In this document: positions 2,548 to 60,763 of the stretch, in pieces
Layout: each line of letters opens with the position of its first letter
Numbering within the stretch: the first letter of the stretch is position 1
From: Escherichia phage vB_EcoM_SYGD1
Length of the DNA: 64,000 nucleotides
Sequence record: MW883059
Direction: 5' to 3' (one strand)
Translations under genes and position numbers: made by a program
The notes under the pieces: model-generated
What the model saw: only the letters and a program-made list of their open reading frames with translations
Database searches by the model: none
What the model was told of the DNA's origin: nothing

Positions 2548-5688
<3,141 letters not shown>

Positions 5689-20253: not shown

Positions 20254-20790
20254 CTATGACCTCTCATACACATAGCTTCTTAATTTATTAGCCCAACGAC
20301 TCCAATTTCCAACTATAGTTTTAGTATAATTTTTAACGAGAGTTTTTCTTACTGGAGCAGGAGGATCTGTCGGTTCAGTAGTATCAGAAGATGACCTAGA
20401 ATTACTGCCAGAACCTCCAGATTCACTTTGTTCTTGGTAGTCATATATTAATGTTACTTCGTAAGTGAATGTCTTCTGGAGGTTTTGAGGAGCTTTCCAT
20501 AAATACAACTGAGTATCAGAATCAGTAGGAAGTTCTTCCCATGAAGCAGCAGTTTTAAATTCATCGCCTAAACGATATTTCAACGCGTCATTTCCAAATC
20601 CAAACACAGATTCATATGTTCCGTATAAGCGATTTTCTTCTACTAAAACCCCAGGAGTTTCTTCGTAACTAGTTATATTTATAGATACTAACGTTTCACC
20701 TGTTTCTAATTGAGCGGTAAAGGTGACGTCGATAGAAGAACCTTCCATGGATTCTCCTAAATCAGCGCTCATTGGAAGTATATTAGCCAA
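20254..20790 (-). CDS. Hypothetical protein (gp5.1-position)
   Basis: 178 aa ORF between the endonuclease and 5.4; no motif recognised. Confidence 0.4.
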
Positions 20791-21649
20791 TTGTTGAATT
20801 CTCTAATGATGTAAATTTATAATCACATTTTTTCAAAGCTTTTAAAATTGCGTTATAACTTACATCCGGAAGGTCATGTTCAATTGCTTTTTCTCTAAAC
20901 CATTTGTATTTCTGCGGATGCGGTTTTCCCAAATCCTCCCAAAGTTTTTTGACTTTTTCTATACTAATCCAAGGTTCAACTGATCTTAGTTTTTTATTTC
21001 TAGCATCTAATCTCGATTTTCTTATCAAAGGATCATTCCATGATTGTTTCGTTCCTTCTATTTTTCCTGGATGATTGATTAATTTATTTCTGTATTCATC
21101 GGATTTCCATAAAGATTTAACAGTATTAGAAATACGAATTTTTAATGTTGGGTCATTTTCAAAAGCAGTTTTCATCGCATTACTCATTTTCTTTCGATAT
21201 TCTGGTGATGCGCATCTTTCTTTGTTTATTTTAGATATTTTCTCTGAAAATTCTTTAGTTGACGTTGATTTAGCTAATGCCTTCAATTGAGCTTTCCTAT
21301 ATTCAGGATTAGACCACATTCTCTTCAAATCTTCGGATGAAAAACCATCACCGCCGGATTTTATATTGGTACATAGAATGTCAGATGATTTATATTTCGA
21401 AATCCAATACCTTTCTCTTAAATTAAGAATTTCATAAGTAGAAACAAATTCAATTATTTCAAAATCTATTTTATAACCAGGTTTATTGCGTATCTTTTTA
21501 ATATAATCACCGGAACCTATATACTTGTCATTTTCTAAATCAAAATATCTAGATTCATGTTTACCAATATAAACACGTACTAATCCTTTCGGATTAGTAA
21601 CGGTTGTTTTATATATGTATCTAAATTGAACAGTGTTAGATTTTTTCAT
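20783..21649 (-). CDS. GIY-YIG homing endonuclease (seg-like)
   Basis: N-terminal FRYIYKTT...VRVYIGKHE...YIGSG GIY-YIG motif; repeated NPEYRK / SPEYRK / SDEYRN DNA-binding-type repeats; own late promoter. Confidence 0.7.
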   Translation of the reverse strand: MKKSNTVQFRYIYKTTVTNPKGLVRVYIGKHESRYFDLENDKYIGSGDYIKKIRNKPGYKIDFEIIEFVSTYEILNLRERYWISKYKSSDILCTNIKSGGDGFSSEDLKRMWSNPEYRKAQLKALAKSTSTKEFSEKISKINKERCASPEYRKKMSNAMKTAFENDPTLKIRISNTVKSLWKSDEYRNKLINHPGKIEGTKQSWNDPLIRKSRLDARNKKLRSVEPWISIEKVKKLWEDLGKPHPQKYKWFREKAIEHDLPDVSYNAILKALKKCDYKFTSLENSTIG

Positions 21650-26708: not shown

Positions 26709-27393
<685 letters not shown>

Positions 27394-27405
27394 TTTCACA
27401 AAGTT

Positions 27406-27435
27406 GTTTACACGGGGTTTTAGTTGTGATACTAT
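27406..27435 (+). promoter_or_regulatory. T4-type early promoter (GTTTAC -35, extended -10 TGnTACTAT)
   Basis: gtttac, 18-nt spacer, tgatactat; upstream of first internal-protein gene. Confidence 0.6.
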
Positions 27436-27471
27436 TACCCTATCAAAACAAATGAGTGATTGGAGAATAAA

Positions 27472-27744
27472 ATGAAAACATTTAAAGAATTTATCAATGA
27501 AGCTACTTTTAACGAAAAAGTAAAAATTAGCAAAGCTGTCAAGACTTTGATTGCTGACATCAATTACCTATATGATATTGATTTAACTGACTATGTAACA
27601 GTTGGTAACAAACGTAACTATTTCGTGTTTGACATCTCTGAACTTGACCAGAATCAAATTAACAACATTGAGCGTTTTGCTAATGATAGGGGTCTTCGAC
27701 ACGAGCCTGGTGGCTATAAAAAATACGCAATTTATTTAAAATGA
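27472..27744 (+). CDS. Internal protein with capsid targeting sequence (IPI-like)
   Basis: N-terminus MKTFKEFINEA resembles T4 internal-protein targeting sequence MKTYQEFIAEA with prohead protease site after INE. Confidence 0.65.
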   Translation: MKTFKEFINEATFNEKVKISKAVKTLIADINYLYDIDLTDYVTVGNKRNYFVFDISELDQNQINNIERFANDRGLRHEPGGYKKYAIYLK

Positions 27745-27774
27745 GTTTACTTTTAGATAGGGTAGTGATACTAT
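27745..27774 (+). promoter_or_regulatory. T4-type early promoter
   Basis: gtttac ... tgatactat. Confidence 0.6.
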
Positions 27775-27804
27775 TATCTCATCAAAATTAATTAGGAAAA
27801 TAAA

Positions 27805-28116
27805 ATGAAAACATTTAAAGAATTTATCAATGAAGCGGCTGCTGCACCAAAGACATTCGTTATTAATACTCAAGCGAGTCTTGATGATGAGTACGCGGAG
27901 GCAATTCTGAAGTCACTTGCTAAGAACGGCGTTGAAGTAATTGCTTCGGACTTTAAGAAAGGGGCTTCCGAGATGTTTATTTCTATAACTAAAGGATCTA
28001 AAGCTAAGATTAAATCATCATTCGGAGTTGCTCGTACCGATCAAATCGACAATCATGACTTTAAACAAACTGGTGCTAAACGGCAGAATACGATTGCATC
28101 ACGCGGAATAAAATAG
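27805..28116 (+). CDS. Internal protein with capsid targeting sequence
   Basis: N-terminus MKTFKEFINEA identical to the preceding ORF for 11 aa, body unrelated. Confidence 0.65.
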   Translation: MKTFKEFINEAAAAPKTFVINTQASLDDEYAEAILKSLAKNGVEVIASDFKKGASEMFISITKGSKAKIKSSFGVARTDQIDNHDFKQTGAKRQNTIASRGIK

Positions 28117-28127
28117 TTTATAAAACC

Positions 28128-28157
28128 GTTTACTTTTAGATGGGGTAGTGATACTAT
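28128..28157 (+). promoter_or_regulatory. T4-type early promoter
   Basis: gtttac ... tgatactat. Confidence 0.6.
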
Positions 28158-28185
28158 TACCCTATCAACTACTGAGGAGAATAAA

Positions 28186-28371
28186 ATGAAACGTTGTGAA
28201 TTAATTCGAAATGTTGCTATTGCAATTTCTGCTTCCGCTTTTAGTTTTTCAATGTTTGTTGGATTTATATGCGGATTATTAACTACAGCAGAAAATGTGT
28301 TTTCACTTGTAGTAGCATTTTTAATTGGTTTAATCGCTATCGTTATGGATAAAATTTCTAAAGGTGAATAG
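28186..28371 (+). CDS. Small membrane protein, hypothetical
   Basis: 61 aa with two hydrophobic stretches. Confidence 0.35.
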   Translation: MKRCELIRNVAIAISASAFSFSMFVGFICGLLTTAENVFSLVVAFLIGLIAIVMDKISKGE

Positions 28372-30263: not shown

Positions 30264-30929
30264 ATGTTCCATTACACTTATAAAATAACAAATAAAATTA
30301 ATAATAAAATCTATATAGGCGCTCATTCTACCGAAAATTTAGATGATGGATATATGGGTTCTGGTAAATTATTAAAAAGAGCCCAAGACAAGTATGGTAT
30401 AGAAAATTTCTCTAAAGAAATATTAGAGTTCTTTGACGATAAAACCTCTATGTTTGAGTCAGAAAAGAATATTGTGACTGAAGAGTTTTTAAAGCGCCCT
30501 GATGTTTATAATTTGAAATTAGGTGGTGAAGGTGGTTGGGACCATTTAAACACTAAAGAATATTTGGATAAAAAGAAAGAAGCTTCCTTAAAAGGGGCTG
30601 CTGCTTTTAAAACCAGATTTGAGAACGACCCAGACCTTAAAGAAAAATATCGTAAAATGGGTTCAGAAAGGTTTAAACAGCTTTGGGATAATCCTAAGTA
30701 TAGAGAGAAATTTTTAAATATTAAATCTTTATTGGGTAAGACCCATACTCCTGAAACTATTAATAAAATGAAAGAATCTCACGCCAGAAATAAACACCAA
30801 CAGGGCGAAAAGAATTCCCAATTTGGTATGATGTGGATTCATTCATTAGATGAAAAAGTTTCTAAACGTATTAAGAAAACTGACCCAATTCCAGAAGGAT
30901 GGTTTAAAGGTCGAAAAATGAAATTTTAA
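30264..30929 (+). CDS. segB: GIY-YIG homing endonuclease inside the tRNA cluster (SegB-like)
   Basis: 221 aa; N-terminal YTYKITNKINNKIYIGAHS...YMGSG; sits between tRNA-Ile and tRNA-Arg as segB does in T4. Confidence 0.75.
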   Translation: MFHYTYKITNKINNKIYIGAHSTENLDDGYMGSGKLLKRAQDKYGIENFSKEILEFFDDKTSMFESEKNIVTEEFLKRPDVYNLKLGGEGGWDHLNTKEYLDKKKEASLKGAAAFKTRFENDPDLKEKYRKMGSERFKQLWDNPKYREKFLNIKSLLGKTHTPETINKMKESHARNKHQQGEKNSQFGMMWIHSLDEKVSKRIKKTDPIPEGWFKGRKMKF

Positions 30930-31009: not shown

Positions 31010-31330
31010 GACAAGAAACCGGGTCGCTACCGGTAAGTCGTCGGACTGATGTTCCCTGGGTAAGGAATTGCGTTAATAAATCTTTATGATTTGTTGATGC
31101 CCTCTTACACCACAGCAGAAACGGCGCACCGAATTATCGATTCGAGGAAATATCTTTGCCGTAAGCCGAGTAGCGTTTTTGACGGAACGTTCGGATATGG
31201 TCGAGATATGGCCTTTTAAAAATATTAAGTAGCGTCAACTGCTTAATAACCGGGTTCGAATCCCGGCGTTTCGTACAAACACTTGCCTTAGCAGGTGGAA
31301 CCCCGACAAGGTTGCCGCAAGGCTTTAGCC
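31010..31330 (+). ncRNA. Putative small stable RNAs (T4 species 1/2, rnaC/rnaD-like)
   Basis: Non-coding stretch after tRNA-Arg; tRNA-like T-arm ccgggttcgaatcccgg at 31249-31265; ends at rho-independent terminator; boundaries uncertain. Confidence 0.35.
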
Positions 31331-31355
31331 CCGACCGAAAGGTTGGGGCTTTTTG
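31327..31355 (+). terminator. Rho-independent terminator
   Basis: agccccgaccgaaaggttggggc followed by ttttt; near-identical copy at 31870-31898. Confidence 0.7.
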
Positions 31356-31356
31356 G

Positions 31357-31364
31357 TATAAATA
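31357..31364 (+). promoter_or_regulatory. Late promoter (TATAAATA)
   Basis: TATAAATA about 40 nt upstream of ORF 31404. Confidence 0.5.
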
Positions 31365-31403
31365 TAGTAGTATATTAAATCACGAATTAAAACAGGAAAT
31401 AAG

Positions 31404-31862
31404 ATGAAATCATATGCTCAATTTTTAAATGAAGCATCCGCTTCAGATGTTCGCGCTGTAGCAACTGCTGCTATTAAAGCTGGTAAATATTCTTATAAAG
31501 ATGCTTCTGACGAATCTCGGTACAAGTTCTACGACGATATGAGAGCTGAAGGCTTTGTGGGTAACTATGTTACCACCGCCTGGAAAAGCCTGGTTGCTAC
31601 TGGTGCGGCTTTCGAAAAACCTTCTGGTAAACCTGCTCCTAAGGCTGACCCTAAAGCAGCACAAGAAAAAAATATTGCTAAAGGAATTATTTCTAGGTAT
31701 GAAGCAATTCTTAAAGAACTTTTGGTAATTAAGACCGAAGGCCAGAAACTTGCGCGAGCTCATAGTTTCAAAGATAACCCACATGCTCATGACCTAGAGT
31801 ATGTTGAAGATCTCCAAAAAATCATCAAAGACCGCATTTGGTCTGCTAAACAAATTAAATAA
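31404..31862 (+). CDS. Internal protein-like, with capsid targeting sequence
   Basis: N-terminus MKSYAQFLNEA matches targeting-sequence pattern; 152 aa. Confidence 0.55.
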   Translation: MKSYAQFLNEASASDVRAVATAAIKAGKYSYKDASDESRYKFYDDMRAEGFVGNYVTTAWKSLVATGAAFEKPSGKPAPKADPKAAQEKNIAKGIISRYEAILKELLVIKTEGQKLARAHSFKDNPHAHDLEYVEDLQKIIKDRIWSAKQIK

Positions 31863-31869
31863 CATTCTT

Positions 31870-31898
31870 AGCCCCAGCCGAAAGGTTGGGGCTTTTGG
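31870..31898 (+). terminator. Rho-independent terminator (repeat of 31327 element)
   Basis: agccccagccgaaaggttggggc + tttt. Confidence 0.65.
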
Positions 31899-32030
31899 TA
31901 TCTAGGCCTTTCTGGACCTCTCTAGGCATCATTTAGTTTATACCCTTTATAATATATTATCCTATCCTTTAATTGCCCATCCCTGCCCTAGAATTCCCTA
32001 AAACTTTTTAAAAATTTTTTTCACAAAACG

Positions 32031-32060
32031 GTTTACATCCCCGTTCTTCCATGGTACTAT
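32031..32060 (+). promoter_or_regulatory. T4-type early promoter
   Basis: gtttac ... tggtactat. Confidence 0.6.
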
Positions 32061-32104
32061 ACAACTATCAACTACTGATACAGAAAAACAACTTGGAGAA
32101 TGAA

Positions 32105-42574: not shown

Positions 42575-42604
42575 GTTTACTTTCCATTTGAGCTGTGATA
42601 CTAT
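42575..42604 (+). promoter_or_regulatory. T4-type early promoter
   Basis: gtttac ... tgtgatactat. Confidence 0.55.
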
Positions 42605-45052: not shown

Positions 45053-45514
45053 ATGATTATTAATGAAAGCTCTTGGCACTATAAATTATTCAAAATGTTT
45101 AATGATGAATGGAAACGACCTAAGACACTGTGCGCGTATTTTTGGTCTATTGTTATTCCTACATTTTTCGTTTCTTTTTTCGGATGTACTATACTCGCAG
45201 GTCTAACTATCATCTGCGCAGAAATCATGCAGAAATGGCTTATTTTTGGTAGTTTATGGACTCTTATTCCATCAGCATTTATACTTGCCATTTTGCTTGT
45301 TTTACTTATTATTGGTTCATTTGTTATTCCTGCACAACTGCATGAAAAATATAAAGATTATAAATGGAAAAAGGATTATACTTTACATGTAGAAAATATT
45401 GATAGGGCGTATAAAGGTTTACCTCCTATTAAACCCAAGAAATCTATTATCGTCGAATTTTTAAAAGCTCGTAAAGCTAAAGTATGTCCTGTTATTGAAT
45501 ATAAGGCTGAATGA
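45053..45514 (+). CDS. Hypothetical membrane protein
   Basis: 153 aa with about three transmembrane helices; ATGA-coupled to downstream nucleotidyltransferase. Confidence 0.45.
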   Translation: MIINESSWHYKLFKMFNDEWKRPKTLCAYFWSIVIPTFFVSFFGCTILAGLTIICAEIMQKWLIFGSLWTLIPSAFILAILLVLLIIGSFVIPAQLHEKYKDYKWKKDYTLHVENIDRAYKGLPPIKPKKSIIVEFLKARKAKVCPVIEYKAE

Positions 45515-46524
45515 TGAAAACAGTAATGAAAAGCTATTTTGGTAGTCATCTTTATGGAACTTCTACCCCAGAATCTGATGTAGATTTTAAAGAAATTTTT
45601 GTTCCTCCTGCTCGTGATATTCTTATCGGAAACGTCAAAGAGCACATGAGTAAAAACACCAACAACACATCATCTAAAAACACTAAAGATGATATTGACC
45701 ACGAATTGTATAGTCTTAAGTATTTCTTTAAATTAGCAGCAGATGGTGAAACCGTAGCATTGGATATGCTTCACACTCCACCTGAACTAGTGGTTAAATC
45801 TGATTTGCCTGATGTGTGGAAGTTTATTCAAGACAACCGTTCTCGTTTTTATACGACTAACATGAAATCCTATTTAGGATATGTCCGTAAGCAAGCTTCT
45901 AAATACGGTGTCAAGGGTTCTCGTTTGGCTGCATTACGTGATGTATTGAAAGTAGTTAATCAAATCCCTGAGCAATGGGTTGATTACCAAGAAGACGGTT
46001 CCATTAAGCAGCGTCGTACTAAAGTTGAAGATATTAAGCATCGTCTTCCAAAAAACGAATTCTGTGAATGGGTGTTCCATGATCATGAGAAAACAGGCCC
46101 ACAAACGTTCTATACTGTATTGGGTCGTAAATATCAGACAACGCTTTCTCTTATTGAGCTTAAGCAGTCACTGAACAAATTAAATGCTGAATATGGTGAA
46201 CGCGCTCGTAAGGCCGAAGCCAATGAAGGCATCGACTGGAAAGCTCTGAGCCATGCTTGTCGTGGTGGACTTCAACTATTGGAAATTTACAAAACTGGTG
46301 ACTTGGTTTATCCACTTCAAGACGCTCCATTTATTCTCGACGTGAAGTTGGGTAAACATCCATTTAAAACAGTTCAAGAGTTTTTGGAAGATGTGGTCGA
46401 TCAAGTAGAAGCAGCATCTACTGAAGCTTCTAAGAACGGTATGCAGCAAAAAGTAGACATGAGTTTCTGGGATGACTTCCTTGAGAAGGTGTATCTCGAA
46501 AACCATCGAAGTTATTATAAATGA
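45511..46524 (+). CDS. Pol-beta superfamily nucleotidyltransferase-like protein
   Basis: N-terminal GSHLYGTSTPESDVDF fits the G[GS]x9-13 D-x-D nucleotidyltransferase signature; 337 aa. Confidence 0.5.
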   Translation: MMKTVMKSYFGSHLYGTSTPESDVDFKEIFVPPARDILIGNVKEHMSKNTNNTSSKNTKDDIDHELYSLKYFFKLAADGETVALDMLHTPPELVVKSDLPDVWKFIQDNRSRFYTTNMKSYLGYVRKQASKYGVKGSRLAALRDVLKVVNQIPEQWVDYQEDGSIKQRRTKVEDIKHRLPKNEFCEWVFHDHEKTGPQTFYTVLGRKYQTTLSLIELKQSLNKLNAEYGERARKAEANEGIDWKALSHACRGGLQLLEIYKTGDLVYPLQDAPFILDVKLGKHPFKTVQEFLEDVVDQVEAASTEASKNGMQQKVDMSFWDDFLEKVYLENHRSYYK

Positions 46525-46526
46525 TA

Positions 46527-46551
46527 GGGAGCCTTCGGGCTCCTTTTTTTT
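46527..46551 (+). terminator. Rho-independent terminator (part of stem-loop plus early promoter cassette)
   Basis: ggagccttcgggctcc + tttttttt. Confidence 0.7.
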
Positions 46552-46575
46552 ATTTCAAAAATTTTTCACAAAGTT

Positions 46576-46605
46576 GTTTACTTCTATCATAAAGCATATT
46601 ATAAT
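46576..46605 (+). promoter_or_regulatory. T4-type early promoter
   Basis: tttcacaaagttGTTTAC, 18 nt, TATAAT. Confidence 0.65.
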
Positions 46606-46637
46606 ATATTTGTAGTTAATTAATCGTTCTTTAAAAA

Positions 46638-47138
46638 ATGAAGAGAAACACAATGCATATTTTAATGAAATGCCTTGGCAACAAAATTAATGATTTTAAT
46701 CATAAGCGTGTTAATGATTACATTAAAGACACACTTGAGATTAAAGACGTACTTTTTAGAGGACTTACAATAGAGGAAGTACTATCTCATAAGTTTGAAG
46801 TTAATAGGAGAATCAAATTTAAAAGAATAACTTCCTTTAGTAGTGAATCTCATATAGCTGAAACATTTGCAGCAGAACGCTATATGACTAATGTTTTAAT
46901 AGTGTTAAAAAATGCAAACGTTTTTGACTATTCAACTGCTATGATTGAAATTTTAGAAAATTTAATCGCAATTGAAGAATCTGGCCAGATTGATGATGAT
47001 AAGCTTAATAAGCTTTATGATAATCTTTCTATGGTGGATTATGAAAGAGAGTTTTTATTGCCAATTAATTCGGAGTTAACAGTTAAAAACATATATTTTG
47101 ATAGCAAAAAGAGCATGCATATAATAGAAATGGAATAA
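46638..47138 (+). CDS. Putative mono-ADP-ribosyltransferase (R-S-E type), small
   Basis: VLFRGL (aromatic-Arg motif), TSFSSES (S-x-S), YEREFLLP (E-x-E followed by LLP) in the order expected for C3/Alt/Mod-type enzymes. Confidence 0.4.
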   Translation: MKRNTMHILMKCLGNKINDFNHKRVNDYIKDTLEIKDVLFRGLTIEEVLSHKFEVNRRIKFKRITSFSSESHIAETFAAERYMTNVLIVLKNANVFDYSTAMIEILENLIAIEESGQIDDDKLNKLYDNLSMVDYEREFLLPINSELTVKNIYFDSKKSMHIIEME

Positions 47139-47147
47139 AAGCATAAA

Positions 47148-47171
47148 GGGGCCCTAGAGGTCCCCTTTTTT
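47148..47171 (+). terminator. Rho-independent terminator (part of stem-loop plus early promoter cassette)
   Basis: ggggccctagaggtcccc + tttttt. Confidence 0.65.
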
Positions 47172-47195
47172 ATTTCAAAAATTTTTCACAAAGTG

Positions 47196-47225
47196 GTTTA
47201 CAAGCATAAAGCTTTATGGTACTAT
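47196..47225 (+). promoter_or_regulatory. T4-type early promoter
   Basis: tttcacaaagtgGTTTAC ... tggtactat. Confidence 0.6.
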
Positions 47226-47407
47226 ACAACTATCAAAACAAACACTTAAACGGAAAACAAAATGAAAATTACACCAATTGAAGTAAAAAAGTTGATTGAT
47301 ACAGAAGAAATTTCAGAGTGTTTTGAAAGTTTCTTAGAAGACGCAACTGAAGATAACGCGGTTTATCTCGCCCAGAAAATTATCGAAACTTATTTGGAGA
47401 AGAATCA

Positions 47408-47671
47408 ATGACAGTTTACGTAGATGTTTTAATGAATCATGGATGGAAACTTCGCGGTCATCCAACTAAAAATTGTCATATGTTCACTGATGGAGATATT
47501 GAAGAGCTTCATAAAATGGCAGAAGCAATAGGAATGAAACGTTCTTGGTTTCAAGATAAACGCATTAAACATTATGACTTACACGCGCGCCGCCGCCAAA
47601 AAGCTGTAGAACTTGGAGCTGTAGAAGTATCTCGTCGCGAAGCAGTAAAAATTTGGCAAACATTAAAATAA
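47408..47671 (+). CDS. Small conserved-domain protein, hypothetical
   Basis: 87 aa, basic, His/Cys-containing (HGWKLRGHPTKNCHMF). Confidence 0.4.
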   Translation: MTVYVDVLMNHGWKLRGHPTKNCHMFTDGDIEELHKMAEAIGMKRSWFQDKRIKHYDLHARRRQKAVELGAVEVSRREAVKIWQTLK

Positions 47672-47674
47672 ATT

Positions 47675-47704
47675 GTTTACAGTAGGGTAGTAGTGTGATA
47701 CTAT
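47675..47704 (+). promoter_or_regulatory. T4-type early promoter
   Basis: gtttac ... tgtgatactat. Confidence 0.6.
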
Positions 47705-47740
47705 TACCCTATCAAAACAAATGTGAAATTGGAGAATAAA

Positions 47741-48709
47741 ATGAAAACTGTAACTATCAATAAGGGTATCTACTTCGGTAAAGAAATCTCTGGAACTTTT
47801 GAGCTCTTAGGCGAATGGTTCCCAGATAATGCTCCGGTAGATGCACAAGGAGATGGTAAAGTTTTTGTTGAAATTGACGGTAAGCGTCGCGGTGTTTGGG
47901 TTTACAAATCAGACATTTCATATGATGGTGTAAAAGTTGAAGAAGTTAAAGAATCGTATGAAGATATGAAAACCCGCATTAATAAAAGATTTAATGTTAT
48001 GGGAATGATGACGAATGGTATTATTAACGGAAATATTCGTTCATTGATTATCTCTGGCGCAGCAGGTATTGGTAAAACGTATTCTTTAGATAAAGCTTTA
48101 AATAAAGCAAATGATATTGGATACATTGAATATAAAAGCATTAATGGTAAAATCTCTGGTATTGGTCTTTATGAACAGCTTTGGAATAATCGTGAAGAGA
48201 ATTCTGTCCTTTTGATTGATGATGTGGATGTTTTCTCTGATATGGACATTCTTAATCTTCTAAAAGCCGCTCTGGACACCGGAGAGACCCGTAAAGTCTG
48301 CTGGAGCACTGCATCTTCTTACTTAGAAGAAAAAGGCATTGAGCGTGAGTTTGAATTTAAAGGAACGATTGTTTTTATCACAAACGTTGACATTGACCGC
48401 GAATTAGACCGTGGTACTAAACTTGCTCCACATTTACAAGCATTAGTGTCCCGCTCAGTTTATTTGGATTTGGGTGTTCACACTAATGAAGAAATTATGG
48501 TCAGGGTTGAAGATGTTATTCTTTCAACCGACATGATGCAAAAGCGCGGTCTTTCTGATGAAGAAACTTATAAAGCATTATCATGGATGAAAGTCAATGT
48601 TAATCGTTTACGCAATGTTTCACTGCGTACTGCACTTTATCTTGCTGACTTTATTATGACCGACAAAAATCATTGGGAAGAAATTGCTGAAACGGTATTA
48701 TTAAAATGA
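47741..48709 (+). CDS. P-loop (AAA-like) ATPase
   Basis: Walker A GAAGIGKTYS, Walker B LLIDDVD; ORF 47723-48709, start at MKTVTINKG assumed. Confidence 0.55.
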   Translation: MKTVTINKGIYFGKEISGTFELLGEWFPDNAPVDAQGDGKVFVEIDGKRRGVWVYKSDISYDGVKVEEVKESYEDMKTRINKRFNVMGMMTNGIINGNIRSLIISGAAGIGKTYSLDKALNKANDIGYIEYKSINGKISGIGLYEQLWNNREENSVLLIDDVDVFSDMDILNLLKAALDTGETRKVCWSTASSYLEEKGIEREFEFKGTIVFITNVDIDRELDRGTKLAPHLQALVSRSVYLDLGVHTNEEIMVRVEDVILSTDMMQKRGLSDEETYKALSWMKVNVNRLRNVSLRTALYLADFIMTDKNHWEEIAETVLLK

Positions 48710-49425
48710 AAAAATATTTTACTATCTATAAAACTGAAATATTAAATTTAAAGACAGGTATTAAGAAATACTATTATGGTCGACATATAACTAATAACAT
48801 CAATGATTCGTATGTTGGTAGTGGAAATTATATAGAACGTGTAAAAGTGTCAAATGACCACATATTATCAAAAACGGTTTTAGAAGTTTTTGATAATTAT
48901 GATAAAATGGTACAAGCTGAAATATTATATATCATGGCAGGTAAATTGAAATATGGAAAAAACTGTGTTAACCTGTCATACGGGGGTGAAGGAGGAAAGG
49001 TTGCAGATGAAACTAGGATAAAATGCAAAAAGCATTCTATAAATTTATGGAAAAATCCTAATCATATACAGCATATGAAGAAAAAGATGAAAGAGGTTAC
49101 ATCCACGCCGGAAGCTAAATTAAACACTTCAATAAAAACTTCGCAACGATATAAGGACCCAGTTTTTGTTAGAAAAGTTAGTAATATTATTAAAAAGAAA
49201 CTAAGCAATCCTGTAGTAAAAGAAAAGCATATTAATGGAATTAAAGCTGCAAAGCGTTCTCATTTAACTATATGGCAGTATGAAGATGAATTATTCGAGC
49301 TTTGGAAAGAAACTAAATATGGATGGAGAAAATTTACAAAGGAAGCTATAAAACACGGATATCCAAATGAACCGTATCGTAGTATGGTATCAACTTTTCA
49401 GAAAAGACATTTAGAAGAATCCTAA
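48706..49425 (+). CDS. GIY-YIG homing endonuclease (seg-like)
   Basis: YFTIYKTEILNLKTGIKKYYYGRH...YVGSG; C-terminal basic repeats. Confidence 0.65.
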   Translation: MKKYFTIYKTEILNLKTGIKKYYYGRHITNNINDSYVGSGNYIERVKVSNDHILSKTVLEVFDNYDKMVQAEILYIMAGKLKYGKNCVNLSYGGEGGKVADETRIKCKKHSINLWKNPNHIQHMKKKMKEVTSTPEAKLNTSIKTSQRYKDPVFVRKVSNIIKKKLSNPVVKEKHINGIKAAKRSHLTIWQYEDELFELWKETKYGWRKFTKEAIKHGYPNEPYRSMVSTFQKRHLEES

Positions 49426-49813: not shown

Positions 49814-49844
49814 GTTTACAAGACTGTTCCTCTGTGGTACTATA
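49814..49844 (+). promoter_or_regulatory. T4-type early promoter
   Basis: gtttac ... tggtactat. Confidence 0.6.
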
Positions 49845-49871
49845 CAACTATCAACTACGGAGGAACAGAAA

Positions 49872-51760: not shown

Positions 51761-51768
51761 GGAATACC

Positions 51769-52698
51769 ATGAAAACTCGTAAACAATATATTGATTATTT
51801 TGACAGTCTTATTACTAAACACCGTAATTATCAAATCGGGCACAGAGCAGTAATCAATAATATTCTTCGTGATTTCCTTCAATATGTTGGCCAGGAAAAT
51901 CATATCTGTAAAGATACACAGAACGCTTATTCTCATTCGTTAGGCAATTTGCTTCAATGGTTTAAACGTTCTCGTCTGTTATCTTCTACTGTAGCTAGTG
52001 ATAACATTAAAAACTTTATGAAGCCGAGCTTCATTAAATCTGCGACATCTATAACCGATTTGGTTGAATTTACTATTGTTAACGATGTTAAAAAGACCCA
52101 TTTGGCTGATTGGTTATCTACCATTCCTGAAACTAAATTTGCTGATAAATTTGCTTATCAATTCAATGACCAAGTGAATATGCTTTTTAAGCATGCTCGT
52201 AAACTATTTACCGCGGGCGATGACCGTACAAATACAGTTCATGTTAAGGATTGGGTTATTGCTGATGAAGTAACACACAAGCCGGGTGGTTCATCAGTAT
52301 TAATTAATATCCAGGTTCCTTATTACTACTCACGTAATCTCGGCACCATGACAGCTAGAGAAATTAATAAGCATAACAAAACTATTCGTTCGTTGTCTTA
52401 TAAACTCTGCACGATGGTGGAGATGATGGACGTAGTGGAAATGTATGATGAAACCGAAGATAATAGTTCAATGTTATACAGTTCACGTATTCTAATTAAA
52501 CTGAAGAACCCTAATACATATAAGCCAGCTGTAAAAGAACCTAAAGCAGAAAAGGTTGATAACCTGAACGAAGAACGTGAATATCTCAATGCTCGTTTGA
52601 TTGAAGTTGAAGCCCAGATTGCCGAACACACCAAATTGTTAAAAGCTCTTAATGCAAAAGCAAATGGTTTACGTAATGCTATTGAGGTATTGAAATGA
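51769..52698 (+). CDS. Hypothetical protein with C-terminal coiled coil
   Basis: 309 aa; same domain layout as preceding ORF. Confidence 0.45.
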
Positions 52699-54875: not shown

Positions 54876-55349
54876 ATGTTATTGACTGGCAAATTATACA
54901 AAGAAGAAAAACAGAAATTTTATGACGCACAAAACGGTAAATGCTTAATTTGCCAACGAGAACTAAATCCTGATGTTCAAGCTAATCACCTTGACCATGA
55001 CCATGAATTAAATGGACCAAAAGCAGGAAAGGTGCGTGGATTGCTCTGTAATCTCTGCAATGCAGCGGAAGGTCAAATGAAACACAAATTTAATCGTTCT
55101 GGCTTAAAAGGACAAGGCGTTGATTATCTTGAATGGTTAGAAAATTTACTTACTTATTTAAAATCCGATTACACCCAAAATAATATTCACCCTAACTTCG
55201 TTGGAGATAAATCAAAGGAATTTTCTCGTTTAGGAAAAGAGGAAATGATGGCTGAGATGCTTCAAAGAGGATTTGAATATAATGAATCTGACACTAAAAC
55301 ACAATTAATAGCTTCATTTAAGAAGCAGCTTAGAAAGAGTTTAAAATGA
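54876..55349 (+). CDS. 49: Endonuclease VII (Holliday junction resolvase)
   Basis: 157 aa; Cys pairs and HLDHDHELNG catalytic region. Confidence 0.85.
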   Translation: MLLTGKLYKEEKQKFYDAQNGKCLICQRELNPDVQANHLDHDHELNGPKAGKVRGLLCNLCNAAEGQMKHKFNRSGLKGQGVDYLEWLENLLTYLKSDYTQNNIHPNFVGDKSKEFSRLGKEEMMAEMLQRGFEYNESDTKTQLIASFKKQLRKSLK

Positions 55350-55864
55350 CAATTGAAAAAGAAATTGAAGGATTGATTCATAAAACTAATAAAGACCTTT
55401 TAAACGAGAATGCTAATAAAGATTCTCGTGTTTTTCCAACTCAACGGGACCTTATGGCTGGTATTGTGTCTAAACACATTGCCAAAAATATGGTCCCGTC
55501 TTTTATTATGAAAGCGCATGAAAGCGGAATTATTCATTTCCATGATATTGATTATTCCCCTGCTCTTCCATTTACTAATTGCTGTTTAGTAGATTTAAAA
55601 GGAATGCTTGAGAACGGGTTTAAGCTTGGTAATGCACAGATTGAAACCCCTAAATCAATTGGCGTTGCTACTGCAATTATGGCACAAATTACTGCACAGG
55701 TTGCTTCCCATCAATATGGCGGAACGACTTTTGCGAATGTAGATAAAGTACTTTCTCCTTATGTTAAACGCACCTATGCGAAACATATTGAGGACGCGGA
55801 AAAATGGCAAATCGCAGATGCATTGAATTATGCCCAATCTAAAACAGAAAAAGATGTCTATGAC
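55346..55864 (+). CDS. nrdD: Anaerobic ribonucleotide reductase NrdD, exon 1 (3' boundary approximate)
   Basis: Reading frame closes at 55891 inside the intron; exon end estimated, not determined. Confidence 0.6.
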
Positions 55865-56897
55865 GCGTTCCAGGCGTATGAGTTAATTTAATTCAGGCTC
55901 ATGTAAAACCGGTCTAAACGGGGAACCTCTCTAGTAGACAATCCCGTGCTAAATGTTCTTTTGAACTAAATGCCTAACGACTAACCGTGATGAATGTAGC
56001 GGTGTAGAATAGAAGCTAATGCTATTCGAAACGGCCGGCATCGAAAGATGAAGATATAGTCTAATCTGCATGGCGACATGCAGCAGTCATCTTGTATAAA
56101 TAAGATTATCTTATGAATACGAGGTGAAACAATGAAATGGATAAAAAGACGTTGTACTAAAATAAAAGATAAAGACGCATTTACATACTTAGTTAAGTTT
56201 TCTAATGGTGACATTTATATCGGTTATAAAAAATTTAGAACAATTAAAAACAAGCCCACAAACTGGAAAACTTACACAACGTCATCTAAGTATATAAATG
56301 AACGCTTAAAAACTGATACACCTACTAAATGGATAATTTTAAAAACATTTGATAGTTATAAAGATGCATTAAAACATGAAGAAGAGGTCATACGTAAATA
56401 TTTTTATAGCAAAAAATGTTTAAATAAATCCATAGGCGGTAAAAAGTTTTATAAGCATCCGGATACTGAAGAACATATTCAAAAATTAAGAGATGCTCAT
56501 AAGGGTAAAGTGTTATCCGAATCTCATAAAAACAATATAAAATCTTCTGTAGCTGAATATTATGCTAAAAACGGAAGATCTAAGGAACATGTGCAAAATA
56601 ATATCAATAGTCGAAAAAGTAAAAAACAAGTATCGATAAAGCTTAAAAATAAAACTTTTAGAAGTTTTAAAAAAGCAGCGGAATATTTAAATTGCACTGA
56701 AAGTGAAGTCGAAACTCATCCTCTTGTTTTGAGTATTAAGACTACTATTCATAAAGTTCCTGAATATGTGGTTGTTGACGGTATTAAGTATACGTCTTAT
56801 ATAGAAGCAGCTAAAGCGCTAAATTTTCATCCTAGCACTATAAAAGAACGTTGCATATCTATGGACTATCCAAATTTTGTTGTTTCATATAAACGGG
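55865..56897 (+). mobile_element. Group I self-splicing intron in nrdD carrying a homing endonuclease ORF (boundaries approximate)
   Basis: nrdD frame is interrupted by about 1 kb holding a free-standing GIY-YIG ORF, then resumes; T4 nrdD has a group I intron of similar size. Confidence 0.6.
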
Positions 56898-56902
56898 CAT
56901 GA
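56132..56902 (+). CDS. Intron-encoded GIY-YIG homing endonuclease (I-TevII-like)
   Basis: 256 aa; FTYLVKFSNGDIYIGYKK GIY-YIG motif; inside nrdD intron. Confidence 0.7.
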   Translation: MKWIKRRCTKIKDKDAFTYLVKFSNGDIYIGYKKFRTIKNKPTNWKTYTTSSKYINERLKTDTPTKWIILKTFDSYKDALKHEEEVIRKYFYSKKCLNKSIGGKKFYKHPDTEEHIQKLRDAHKGKVLSESHKNNIKSSVAEYYAKNGRSKEHVQNNINSRKSKKQVSIKLKNKTFRSFKKAAEYLNCTESEVETHPLVLSIKTTIHKVPEYVVVDGIKYTSYIEAAKALNFHPSTIKERCISMDYPNFVVSYKRA

Positions 56903-58208
56903 ATTTGCGACTCATGCTGAATATAATGATGAAGTAAATACACTTTTCAGCTCTAATGGACAAACGCCTTTTGTAACAATTACATTTGGTACGGGAACTG
57001 ACTGGACTGAACGAATGATTCAGAAAGCAATTCTGAAAAATCGTATTAAAGGTCTTGGTCGTGACGGGATAACTCCTATTTTCCCTAAACTTGTTATGTT
57101 CGTTGAAGAAGGTGTTAATCTTTATAAAGACGATCCGAACTATGATATTAAGCAGCTTGCTCTAGAGTGTGCAAGTAAAAGAATGTATCCTGACATCATT
57201 TCGGCTAAGAACAATAAAGCTATTACCGGTTCATCTATTCCTGTTTCTCCAATGGGTTGTCGTAGTTTCTTGAGTGTATGGAAAGATTCGACTGGTAATG
57301 AAATTCTTGATGGACGTAATAATCTTGGTGTTGTAACACTGAATCTTCCTCGTATTGCGTTAGATTCTTATATTGGAACACAGTTCAATGAACAGAAATT
57401 TGCCGAATTGTTCAATGAACGAATGGATTTATGTTTTGAAGCTTTGATGTGTAGAATCAGTTCCTTAAAAGGAGTTAAAGCGACTGTTGCTCCTATTCTT
57501 TATCAAGAAGGTGCATTCGGGGTTCGTCTTAAACCTGATGACGATATAATTGAGTTATTTAAAAACGGTAGAAGTTCAGTGTCCTTAGGATACATTGGTA
57601 TTCACGAATTGAATATTCTTGTCGGTCGTGATATTGGACAAGAAATTTTAACTAAAATGAATGCTCATCTTAAGCAGTGGACTGAAAGAACCGGTTTTGC
57701 TTTTAGCTTGTATTCTACTCCTGCGGAAAACCTGTGCTATCGCTTCTGTAAACTTGATACCGAAAAATATGGAAGTGTAAAGGATGTTACTGATAAAGGC
57801 TGGTACACTAATAGTTTCCATGTTTCAGTAGAAGAAAATATTACTCCGTTTGAAAAGATTTCTCGCGAAGCCCCATATCATTTCATTGCGACAGGTGGTC
57901 ACATTTCTTATGTTGAACTTCCTGATATGAAAAATAACCTAAAAGGTCTTGAGGCTGTATGGGATTATGCTGCACAACATTTAGATTATTTTGGTGTTAA
58001 TATGCCAGTAGATAAATGTTTTACGTGTGGAAGTACCCATGAAATGACTCCAACTGAAAACGGATTTGTTTGTTCTATTTGTGGAGAAACTGATCCTAAA
58101 AAGATGAACACAATAAGAAGAACATGCGGATATCTTGGAACTCCTAGCGTTGTTCCATGGAATTTAGGTAAAATGAAAGAAATGGTAAAACGAGTAAAAC
58201 ATGCATAG
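56898..58208 (+). CDS. nrdD: Anaerobic ribonucleotide reductase NrdD, exon 2 (5' boundary approximate)
   Basis: Zn ribbon CFTCGSTHEMTPTENGFVCSICGE and glycyl radical motif RRTCGYLG near C-terminus. Confidence 0.8.
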   Translation, partial: HEFATHAEYNDEVNTLFSSNGQTPFVTITFGTGTDWTERMIQKAILKNRIKGLGRDGITPIFPKLVMFVEEGVNLYKDDPNYDIKQLALECASKRMYPDIISAKNNKAITGSSIPVSPMGCRSFLSVWKDSTGNEILDGRNNLGVVTLNLPRIALDSYIGTQFNEQKFAELFNERMDLCFEALMCRISSLKGVKATVAPILYQEGAFGVRLKPDDDIIELFKNGRSSVSLGYIGIHELNILVGRDIGQEILTKMNAHLKQWTERTGFAFSLYSTPAENLCYRFCKLDTEKYGSVKDVTDKGWYTNSFHVSVEENITPFEKISREAPYHFIATGGHISYVELPDMKNNLKGLEAVWDYAAQHLDYFGVNMPVDKCFTCGSTHEMTPTENGFVCSICGETDPKKMNTIRRTCGYLGTPSVVPWNLGKMKEMVKRVKHA

Positions 58209-59031
58209 GTATTATATAATTTATAAAATAACAAATATAATTAATTCAAAGGAATATATCGGTGCGCATAGCACCGATAACATAAATGACGGTTATATGG
58301 GGTCAGGAACATTGATTCGTGCCGCTTTATTAAAATATGGTAGAAAAAATTTTAATAAAGAAATTTTACATGTTTTTGATAATGAAAAACAAATGTATGA
58401 TAAAGAAGCTGAACTTGTAACCGAAGAGTATTGTCTAAAAGAAAATACATATAATATTAAACCTGGTGGAAAAGGTGGAACTGCCTATGAACAGACACTT
58501 GAACATCGCCGCAAAAATAGTTTAGCAAATAAAGGTAAAAAGAGAACAGAAGAAACTAAAATAGCTATTTCACGTGCTTTAAAGAAATATAAACGTACGC
58601 CAGAGCATCAAGCAAATTTAAATAAAGCCGTAAGCATAGCTATGAAGCGAAAAGATGTTAGAAGTAAATTAGCTGGAGAGCGGTCTGAGAAAGATAAATT
58701 ATCTATATCAAACGGTGTTAAAAAATATTACAATTCTTTGAGTGAAGAAGAACGCGAACTTCATCGCAAGCGAATTATTGAAGGTAAAAAGAATTCTCCC
58801 ATGTCATTGGAATCTAGACAAAAGCTTTCAAAAGCTTTAAAAGGACTTCAAGTTGGTTCAAAAAATCCAATGTATGGAAAAATTTCTCCAACTAGCAAAA
58901 CCGTTTCAGTTGACGGTATTAAATATGATTCAATTAAAAAGTGCTCAAATGCCATAAAAGTTTCTAGACATCTTATACTAAAACGCTGTAATTCTACTGA
59001 TGAAGCTTGGAAAAATTGGATATTATTATGA
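58201..59031 (+). CDS. GIY-YIG homing endonuclease (seg-like) between nrdD and nrdG
   Basis: YYIIYKITNIINSKEYIGAHS...YMGSG; resembles the segB-like ORF at 30264. Confidence 0.7.
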   Translation: MHRYYIIYKITNIINSKEYIGAHSTDNINDGYMGSGTLIRAALLKYGRKNFNKEILHVFDNEKQMYDKEAELVTEEYCLKENTYNIKPGGKGGTAYEQTLEHRRKNSLANKGKKRTEETKIAISRALKKYKRTPEHQANLNKAVSIAMKRKDVRSKLAGERSEKDKLSISNGVKKYYNSLSEEERELHRKRIIEGKKNSPMSLESRQKLSKALKGLQVGSKNPMYGKISPTSKTVSVDGIKYDSIKKCSNAIKVSRHLILKRCNSTDEAWKNWILL

Positions 59032-60465: not shown

Positions 60466-60534
60466 CATTCTGTATATTACCATTCTAAGCTATCGTTCCC
60501 TTCTTATCGTTCACTAAAATAATTTCACAAAGTT

Positions 60535-60564
60535 GTTTACAAGAAGTTCAAACTGTGGTATTAT
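60535..60564 (+). promoter_or_regulatory. T4-type early promoter
   Basis: tttcacaaagttGTTTAC ... tggtattat. Confidence 0.55.
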
Positions 60565-60763
60565 TAACATATGAATTGCCTTTGAGGATTTGATATGGTT
60601 GATAAAGAGATTAAAAAGGATCAGTATTATCGTGTTAACGGACATATTGTTATTGTTACAGCAGTAGATGATCTAGATGTTCATTATACTGTACTTAAAT
60701 GGAATAAACAGATGATTTGTGATCGTGCTGTATTTAGTTCAGTTGCTAAGGAAATTAAACTCC

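Follow-up and report, generated by a model that had tools for sequence, protein, structure and literature searches.

Terminator and early-promoter repeats around a putative ADP-ribosyltransferase gene in the nrdC region of Escherichia phage vB_EcoM_SYGD1 and its relatives

Why does a single small gene lie between two nearly identical hairpin and promoter sequences, and do those sequences only regulate the gene or also mark the edges of a unit that phages exchange? The question is raised by a stretch of 64,000 nucleotides (nt) from Escherichia phage vB_EcoM_SYGD1 (sequence record MW883059), the whole of which is referred to below as the window. An earlier note, made from the letters alone, had described a GC hairpin, a T-run, an A/T-rich element and a GTTTAC hexamer repeated on both sides of an open reading frame (ORF) resembling ADP-ribosyltransferases (ARTs). 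It had likened the repeats to the promoter early stem-loops (PeSLs) of T4-like phages and had suggested that the ORF may be a mobile cassette. Our analysis indicates that the repeats are, with good probability, PeSL-type terminator/early-promoter composites that insulate the ART gene and act as recombination patches.

Two terminator-promoter units and the gene between them

The 4.1-kb stretch around the units matched 723 phage records, nearly all of them Tequatrovirus (T4, T2, T6, RB32 and relatives) at 92-98% identity, and by this match the locus is assigned to the Tequatrovirus nrdC.11-nrdC.10 region, part of the nrdC hyperplastic region, whose gene content differs among the relatives compared. 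Early transcription runs along the + strand of the window. The features of the bracketed gene are as follows.

46526-46551, +: predicted intrinsic terminator of nrdC.11 (hairpin 1), stem AGGGAGCC/GGCTCCTT, loop TTCG, followed by eight T
46544-46581, +: repeat copy 1, consisting of T-run, UP-like A/T-rich element and GTTTAC -35; homology patch in common with copy 2
46577-46605, +: promoter 1, core TTTACT-N17-TATAAT; cassette-specific, accompanying the ORF in every carrier examined
46653-47138, +: putative Mod-like mono-ADP-ribosyltransferase ORF, 161 amino acids (aa) from the ATG at 46653 (46638/46653-47138 if both possible starts are given)
47145-47171, +: predicted terminator hairpin 2, GGGGCC-CTAGA-GGTCCCC with one bulge, then T6; moves with the cassette
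47164-47201, +: repeat copy 2, consisting of T-run, UP-like element and GTTTAC -35
47197-47236, +: promoter 2, core TTTACA-N17-TACTAT (47197-47225, TGG before the -10), with the -10/+1 module TGGTACTATACAACTATCAA

Direct reading and repeat finding placed the complete units at 46528-46581 (copy 1) and 47148-47201 (copy 2), with a spacing of 620 nt and 85% identity over 54 nt. Each begins 2-10 nt past a stop codon with a GC hairpin and its T-run, after which come the A/T-rich upstream element and the GTTTAC -35. The shared stretch is exact over 29 nt (46546-46574 and 47166-47194) and is followed by a T/G mismatch and then GTTTAC; from T-run to -35, 36 nt are common to the copies with one mismatch, and after the T-run either unit reads ATTTCAAAAATTTTTCACAAAGT(T/G)GTTTAC. 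Even when up to 3 mismatches were allowed, the 30-mer ATTTCAAAAATTTTTCACAAAGTKGTTTAC matched the window only at 46552 and 47172, and it was found in 0 of 100 shuffles. The remaining parts of the units are unlike in sequence, both in the hairpins (GGAGCC-TTCG-GGCTCC in copy 1, GGGGCC(C)-TAGA-GGTCCCC in copy 2) and in the spacers and -10 hexamers (TATAAT at 46600-46605, TGG-TACTAT at 47217-47225). The near-identity reported in the earlier note was therefore confirmed, and because T-run, upstream A/T element and -35 are all part of what is shared, it extends beyond the promoter hexamers.

Hairpin 1 (46526-46545) has a folding energy of -13.5 kcal/mol and a z-score of -3.5. It also occurs at the empty site of T4 and RB32, and the Moonvirus carriers have another hairpin at this position; by these comparisons it is part of the resident genome, outside the cassette. 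The terminators of nrdC.11 and of rI.-1 are both catalogued in PMC5931544. Hairpin 2 (47148-47164) folds at -12.0 kcal/mol with a weak z-score of -1.2, the segment being GC-rich; its counterparts in phages Moon, KM16 and CF1 are perfect palindromes, GGGGACCTCTAGAGGTCCCC, and it is annotated as a terminator in G2133. The core of promoter 1 is near-identical (0-3 spacer substitutions) across 12 carrier genomes of three genera, and that of promoter 2 is the nrdC.10 promoter of T4, RB32, T2 and W143.

The bracketed ORF opens mechanically at 46638, and relatives are annotated from the ATG equivalent to 46653, which has a GAGGAG Shine-Dalgarno sequence upstream. Searches of Pfam, NCBIfam and PDB sequences gave nothing significant; the informative comparisons were with PHROGs, in which the ORF matched phrog_832 (RNA polymerase ADP-ribosylase, E 4e-24), and directly with T4 ModA (28% identity, E 8e-11) and ModB (28% identity, E 6e-14) by BLASTP. 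The R-S-ExE catalytic motif (R36, S61, E131, E133) is invariant in the alignment of the three proteins. On these grounds the ART-like label of the earlier note holds, and the product is assigned as a short ModA/ModB-like ADP-ribosyltransferase. It is like the T4 proteins in this identity, in the motif and in its predicted early expression. It differs in its length of 161 aa, which leaves out the N-terminal extension of about 37 residues found in ModA and ModB, and in its location in the nrdC region rather than at the mod locus. By tblastn, ART identities fell into two groups: 43 records reached 90% or more, and no other match came up to 60% (25-32% in the examples listed); the latter lie at the ~12-kb coordinates of the mod locus where record numbering is comparable. 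The annotation of Escherichia phage BW-1 splits the ORF (422-906) into two successive coding sequences (422-712 and 709-906); it is apparently frameshifted there, which suggests that the gene may be dispensable in some backgrounds.

PeSLs were defined in RB49 and phi1, together with a chimeric single unit at empty sites and mini-circles (Arbiol et al. 2010, PMC2839356), and have also been described in PST/T4 and in nt-1/KVP40, with the T4/PST promoter form TTTACW-N17-TAYWAT (Comeau et al. 2014, PMC4122927). The resemblance proposed in the earlier note was borne out by every sequence-level PeSL feature tested. Sigma70-type early promoters of the T-even form TTTACW-N17-TAYWAT lie at 46577-46605 and 47197-47225, TTTTTTATTTCAAAAATTTTTCACAAAGT is present in both copies, and a predicted stem-loop with a T-run is adjacent to each promoter (46526-46551 and 47145-47171). 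The units are intergenic (from the stop at 46524 to the ATG at 46653, and from the stop at 47138 to the ATG at 47262), lie in a hyperplastic region and run up to the Shine-Dalgarno sequence and ATG of the next ORF. The flanked ORF is present or absent in close relatives, with one chimeric unit at the T4/RB32 empty site, and indels associate with the units, if modestly (6/40 against 1.9 expected; see below).

Empty sites, carriers and the edges of the cassette

T4 and RB32 lack the ORF, and their nrdC.11 and nrdC.10 genes are about 114 nt apart. Within the interval is one unit, which opens with hairpin 1 and the shared A/T element and ends with the promoter 2 spacer and -10, directly ahead of the Shine-Dalgarno sequence of nrdC.10. 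A crossover inside the repeat, whether it removed or added the cassette, would be expected to go with one composite unit of this kind at the empty site.

The cassette core (46582-47147) was found in 43 records at 93-99.5% identity, and the carriers include T2, other coliphages, Salmonella phages, the Moonvirus members Moon, CF1 and KM16, and the Gelderlandvirus STML-198. In comparison with Moon, KM16 and STML-198, identity over the cassette is 94-95% (628-666 nt aligned; core 97%), against 67% for nrdC.11 and 73-75% for nrdC.10. In the fine alignment, identity climbs exactly where promoter 1 has its GTTTAC (46576) and falls off near 47186, inside the promoter 2 upstream element. In each of 12 carriers the ORF is accompanied by promoter core 1, the 5' untranslated region (UTR) and hairpin 2, and hairpin 1 and promoter core 2 match the recipient lineage. 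The bases close to the UP/-35 junction are mosaic among the carriers (AAAGTTG, AAAGTGG, AAAATTG, AAAACGG), as would be expected for crossovers at varying points in the patch.

Two carriers have additional sequence in common with T-even phages. CF1 has a near-identical promoter 2 core with its -10/+1 block, and STML-198 has the -10/+1 block and 5' UTR; in either phage an unrelated small ORF follows. The presence of this T-even-type nrdC.10 promoter/5' UTR sequence in addition to the cassette suggests that the donor was a Tequatrovirus and that the crossover lay farther downstream, close to the Shine-Dalgarno sequence. In the Moonvirus Merlin, another small ORF follows the same Moon-type hairpin, and the sequence switches in the A/T element. 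The junction of Citrobacter phage NM4.3, which was considered as a Moonvirus empty site, is rearranged.

Gene content among relatives therefore differs exactly at the units, and identity switches inside both of them. The module edges are seen to coincide with conserved sub-modules of the units, one composite unit occupies the empty site, and the cassette has moved across genera. The idea of a mobile cassette stands for gain, loss and exchange between genera at the units; because all high-identity copies lie in one syntenic interval, it does not extend to relocation to a new locus.

The genes around the cassette, including a second cassette immediately downstream, are the following.

45511-46524, +: nrdC.11 nucleotidyltransferase
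47237-47728, +: second cassette, comprising a 5' UTR, the 49-aa ORF, the DUF4031 ORF and promoter 3
47262-47411, +: 49-aa ORF
47408-47671, +: DUF4031 ORF (Pfam match, E 1.6e-21)
47676-47704, +: promoter 3, with the -10/+1 module GTGATACTATTACCCTATCAA at 47695-47715 and no hairpin upstream
47723-48709, +: nrdC.10 AAA-like ATPase
48706-49425, +: seg-like GIY-YIG endonuclease gene
from 49497: nrdC.9

The second cassette is missing in W143, RB32, T2 and T4, and at least 80% of it is covered in 158 records. Its junctions fall directly after CTATCAA, the end of the -10/+1 module, and directly before TGGAGAATAAAATG, a Shine-Dalgarno/ATG module. A diverged copy of the 49-aa/DUF4031 pair occurs in Citrobacter phage Moon (6252-6568, 74% identity to 47344-47577 of the window); the pair lies upstream of nrdC.10 in the window and several genes downstream of nrdC.10 in Moon.

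The seg-like gene (48706-49425) raises the possibility that its product cuts naive genomes and that repair drags the flanking cassettes along. The gene is 1.5 kb downstream of the ART cassette and is itself present or absent among relatives, and several other homing endonuclease genes of the window adjoin indels. Such co-conversion, however, predicts graded tracts from the cut site rather than a 611-nt island between flanks of 67-75% identity. Nearly every combination of ART cassette, DUF4031 cassette and seg gene is found among the window, W143, ACG-C40, ZN18, RB32, T2 and T4; T2 and ACG-C40 have ART without seg, RB32 and ZN18 have seg without ART, and the Moonvirus carriers have no seg gene here. 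The independent assortment of ART cassette and seg gene led us to reject homing co-conversion, which we consider very improbable.

A further rival is site-specific, integron-like recombination, in which a dedicated protein would recognize the GC hairpin and always swap cassettes at one set position. Hairpin motifs of the type GGGG...CCCC or GGGC do recur at junctions in ZN18 and STML-198, and a factor of this kind was speculated upon by Arbiol 2010 (PMC2839356) with reference to T4 deletions at GGGC motifs. The crossover sites nevertheless vary (-35, UP element, -10/+1, Shine-Dalgarno, hairpin arm), the two hairpins are unlike in sequence, there is no hairpin at promoter 3, one edge of the second cassette, and no recombinase-like ORF was found among the six locus proteins scanned. 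In view of the variable crossover positions and of promoter 3 without a hairpin, fixed-site exchange was rejected; its probability appears slighter still than that of co-conversion.

Promoter sub-modules, breakpoints and the proposed mechanism

The units were also compared with other promoters of the window. With up to 3 mismatches allowed, the 18-mer TTTCACAAAGTTGTTTAC had 5 matches in the window against 0.2 expected, and the three partial copies listed in the earlier note proved to be real: those at 27394-27411 and 60523-60540 match TTTCACAAAGTTGTTTAC in full, and that at 32019-32036 matches it with 3 mismatches. These copies and a further complete unit are given below.

27394-27446, +: partial copy, UP/-35 module TTTCACAAAGTTGTTTAC with the -10/+1 module GTGATACTATTACCCTATCAA; promoter of an internal-protein gene, without a hairpin
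32019-32071, +: partial copy, TTTCACAAAACGGTTTAC (the variant that also occurs at the T4/RB32 empty site) joined to TGGTACTATACAACTATCAA
42542-42604, +: third complete hairpin and promoter unit, rI.-1 terminator AGTCTCCTTCGGGAGACT, T-run and TTTACT-N17-TACTAT
60523-60575, +: partial copy, TTTCACAAAGTTGTTTAC with a TATTAT -10, without a hairpin

We count 13 convincing early promoters of the T4 type on the + strand, with GTTTAC, N17, TAnnAT and, in most of them, TGn. A hairpin lies directly upstream in only 3 of the 13 (those at 42576, which has the rI.-1 terminator, 46577 and 47197), so complete stem-loop and promoter units are a minority. The -10/+1 block TGGTACTATACAACTATCAA has three exact copies (32052-32071, 47217-47236 and 49835-49854; 0.01 expected), and the block GTGATACTATTACCCTATCAA likewise has three (27426-27446, 28148-28168 and 47695-47715) plus one mismatched, with about 0 expected. 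UP/-35 and -10/+1 modules were found in all combinations, giving a reticulate pattern. These blocks of 20-21 nt, which extend from the extended -10 to about +8, combine freely with differing UP/-35 modules and are conserved well beyond the needs of sigma70 recognition. Start-site context, the 5' mRNA end and a recombination linker are candidate roles for them.

Regulatory convergence would account for the likeness of the units by promoter/terminator consensus and for the position of the cassettes by illegitimate indels, of which selection keeps those in intergenic regulatory DNA. All 13 early promoters have a loose A/T-rich upstream consensus and GTTTAC, T4 early promoters have extra conserved regions, the junctions of ZN18 and STML-198 are microhomology/hairpin deletions, and just 15% of breakpoints fall inside promoter units. 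The 29-nt exact and 36-nt near-exact identity between copies 1 and 2 exceeds, however, the maximum of 18-26 nt among other promoters. The direct flanking repeat and the single composite unit at the empty site are a signature of homologous crossover rather than of random joining, the edges of identity between genera coincide with conserved sub-modules on both sides, and the second cassette is bounded by the same sub-modules. We regard convergence as unlikely.

Breakpoints were counted between 26 and 64 kb of the window in comparison with T4 and T2, with a promoter unit defined as -60 to +80 of the -35. Six of 40 distinct indel breakpoints fell in promoter units against 1.9 expected (binomial P 0.012), positions being approximate because they were taken from BLAST. 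The enrichment is real but modest.

Several observations weigh against a role of the units as recombination patches. The homology patch is short (29 nt exact), and 34 of the 40 breakpoints lie outside promoter units, many of them adjoining homing endonuclease genes. ZN18 is without 46542-47213, and the 3' arm of hairpin 1 is joined to spacer 2 (CGGGCT|TATGG, at ~2630-2650 of the ZN18 stretch compared); in STML-198, the 5' arm of hairpin 2 is joined to the -10 of promoter 2 (GGGACC|TATGATAC, at ~3565-3580 of the stretch compared). Both junctions look like hairpin/microhomology deletions, not crossovers in the repeat. The T4/RB32 unit is the allele AAAACGG and not a literal recombinant of the two copies in the window. 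No copy of the ART cassette was found elsewhere among the 43 records at 90% identity or more, all 43 having it in the nrdC.11-nrdC.10 interval. Promoter and terminator functions are putative assignments from consensus and T4 annotation, and selection for viable, intergenic and self-expressed insertions could bias junctions to the units without targeted recombination. PeSL-bracketed exchange, as put forward in the earlier note, is upheld by the edges of the cassettes, which fall at the units, with two qualifications: the ZN18 and STML-198 junctions appear to have arisen otherwise, and the breakpoint enrichment across the window is modest.

The ZN18 and STML-198 deletions remove the T-run, UP element and -35; because a -10 is left without a -35 and there is no terminator, the ORFs downstream would rely on read-through. 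The junctions resemble the T4 deletions at GGGC motifs that are mentioned in Arbiol 2010 (PMC2839356).

We propose the following mechanism for the PeSL-type units. Hairpin 1 would terminate the nrdC.11 transcript, and promoter 1 (UP element, GTTTAC -35, N17, TATAAT) would start a monocistronic early ART mRNA, which hairpin 2 would terminate before promoter 2 restarts transcription for the next genes. With its own promoter 1, its end at hairpin 2 and the restart at promoter 2, the ART gene would be a transcriptionally insulated module. The stretch of about 36 nt that is near-identical on both sides (T-run, UP element and -35) may serve the general recombination machinery as a homology patch, through which the 620-bp module could be deleted, inserted or swapped between phages with little else in common. 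Insertion could come about when a donor, for instance a circle or a co-infecting phage, recombines with the resident unit, and excision would yield a 620-bp circle. The moving module would comprise promoter core 1, the 5' UTR, the ART ORF and hairpin 2 through the T-run/UP element, with hairpin 1 and promoter core 2 supplied by the recipient. The -10/+1 and Shine-Dalgarno/ATG blocks may be further crossover points, of the kind seen at the 49-aa/DUF4031 cassette and in the longer segments of CF1 and STML-198. We infer that the exchanges are homologous crossovers by general recombination on patches of 30-40 nt; varying junction positions favor a process without a fixed-site recombinase. T4-type general recombination works with short homologies (Singer 1982, as cited in Arbiol 2010, PMC2839356).

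Other indels of the window were noted in the same comparisons. Five free-standing ORFs resemble homing endonucleases, at 20783-21649 (-), 30264-30929 (+), 48706-49425 (+), 56132-56902 (+) and 58201-59031 (+), and at each of them the window has an insertion that T4 and/or T2 lack. Four, with GIY-YIG-type N-termini (e.g. YKITN.IN.K.YIGAHST...GYMGSG), are seg-like; the unclassified ORF at 56132-56902 splits the nrdD frame into ORFs 55346-55891 and 56877-58208. At 51761-51781 the window is without ~2.1 kb present in T4 and T2, and the 19-nt overlap of the flanking alignments indicates a short direct repeat at the junction.

Further single-gene units involve internal-protein (IP) genes. The array at 27386-28220 holds two of them (27472-27744 and 27805-28116, both starting MKTFKEFINEA) and a third small ORF, each with its own GTTTAC early promoter (27407, 27746 and 28129). 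A 42-nt repeat that spans the Shine-Dalgarno sequence and the capsid-targeting codons is 98% identical between the first two genes, and T4 and T2 differ from the window across the array, with breakpoints in the -10 regions. An IP-like gene at 31404-31862 (N-terminus MKSYAQFLNEA) lies between 34-nt direct repeats (31325-31358 and 31866-31899), each a terminator hairpin, TTAGCCCC(GA/AG)CCGAAAGGTTGGGGCTTTT(T)GGTAT. T4 and T2 are without 31360-31867 and have kept one repeat copy (35-nt overlap of the flanking alignments). By this arrangement the gene is another single-gene cassette, bounded by a repeated stem-loop and not by a promoter.

Relation to known systems and biological meaning

Phage morons are thought to arrive by illegitimate recombination and have no conserved flanks. 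The ART cassette is like a moron in being a single accessory gene with its own putative promoter and terminator between two conserved backbone genes, and it is unlike one in that its flanks are conserved repeats that hold the junctions. With integron cassettes it shares a small, promoter-associated format, possibly circular intermediates and exchange at a recurring sequence; unlike them it has neither an integrase nor a fixed attC-like point, and its varying junctions fit general homologous recombination. Arbiol 2010 (PMC2839356) had contrasted PeSLs with morons and had drawn the integron analogy.

The closest likeness is to PeSLs themselves, which also combine a stem-loop, an AT-rich region, a sigma70-type early promoter and a Shine-Dalgarno/ATG sequence, are repeated in hyperplastic regions around single small ORFs, and have crossovers in AT-rich, -10/Shine-Dalgarno and stem-loop zones (PMC2839356). 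The published cases concern very close pairs, whereas exchange here spans Tequatrovirus, Moonvirus and Gelderlandvirus with breakpoints placed to ~10 nt; the published mini-circles and promoter/terminator activities are experimental, whereas those proposed here are predicted from sequence. The signals agree with T4 early promoters of the UP/-35/TGn/-10 type, in which GTTTAC lies at -36 to -31 (Hinton 2010, PMC2988021; Nolan et al. 2006, PMC1524935), including the A-rich UP-like region, and the nrdC.11 and rI.-1 hairpins are as annotated in T4-like genomes; T4-type early promoters are likewise annotated in relatives. Those papers treat regulatory signals and do not address the 20-21-nt -10/+1 or 18-36-nt UP/-35 mosaic modules. 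The polymorphic IP locus of T-even phages (Repoila et al. 1994, as cited in PMC4122927) is similar in that close relatives differ there by single-gene units, each under an early promoter of its own and with a conserved 5' end, and units of this type occur in the window at 27.4-28.2 kb and 31.4 kb. It differs in that the Shine-Dalgarno sequence and capsid-targeting codons provide the 3' homology, and the 31.4-kb IP-like gene lies between terminator hairpin repeats.

The locus is a new, well-resolved PeSL example of a mechanism that was already known (Arbiol 2010; Comeau 2014). What is new is the range across genera and the mapping of breakpoints to promoter sub-modules, and no description of a Mod-like ART cassette between nrdC.11 and nrdC.10 was found in the literature searched. 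We tentatively raise the possibility that the 611-620-bp unit is a self-expressing third Mod-type ART that has recently spread among three Tevenvirinae genera by crossovers inside promoter sub-modules, with a Tequatrovirus as the probable donor; the UP/-35, -10/+1 and Shine-Dalgarno sub-modules would then be universal linkers across genomes of ~70% identity, and the ART would be under recent positive selection, for example in host takeover or counter-defence. This compact third Mod-type ART, found in T2 among others, is an accessory early gene worth testing, and the 620-bp cassette with its 36-nt patch offers a simple system for measuring the homology needed in T4-type gene movement. The locus is a natural demonstration that T-even terminator/early-promoter units mark the edges of exchangeable single-gene modules.

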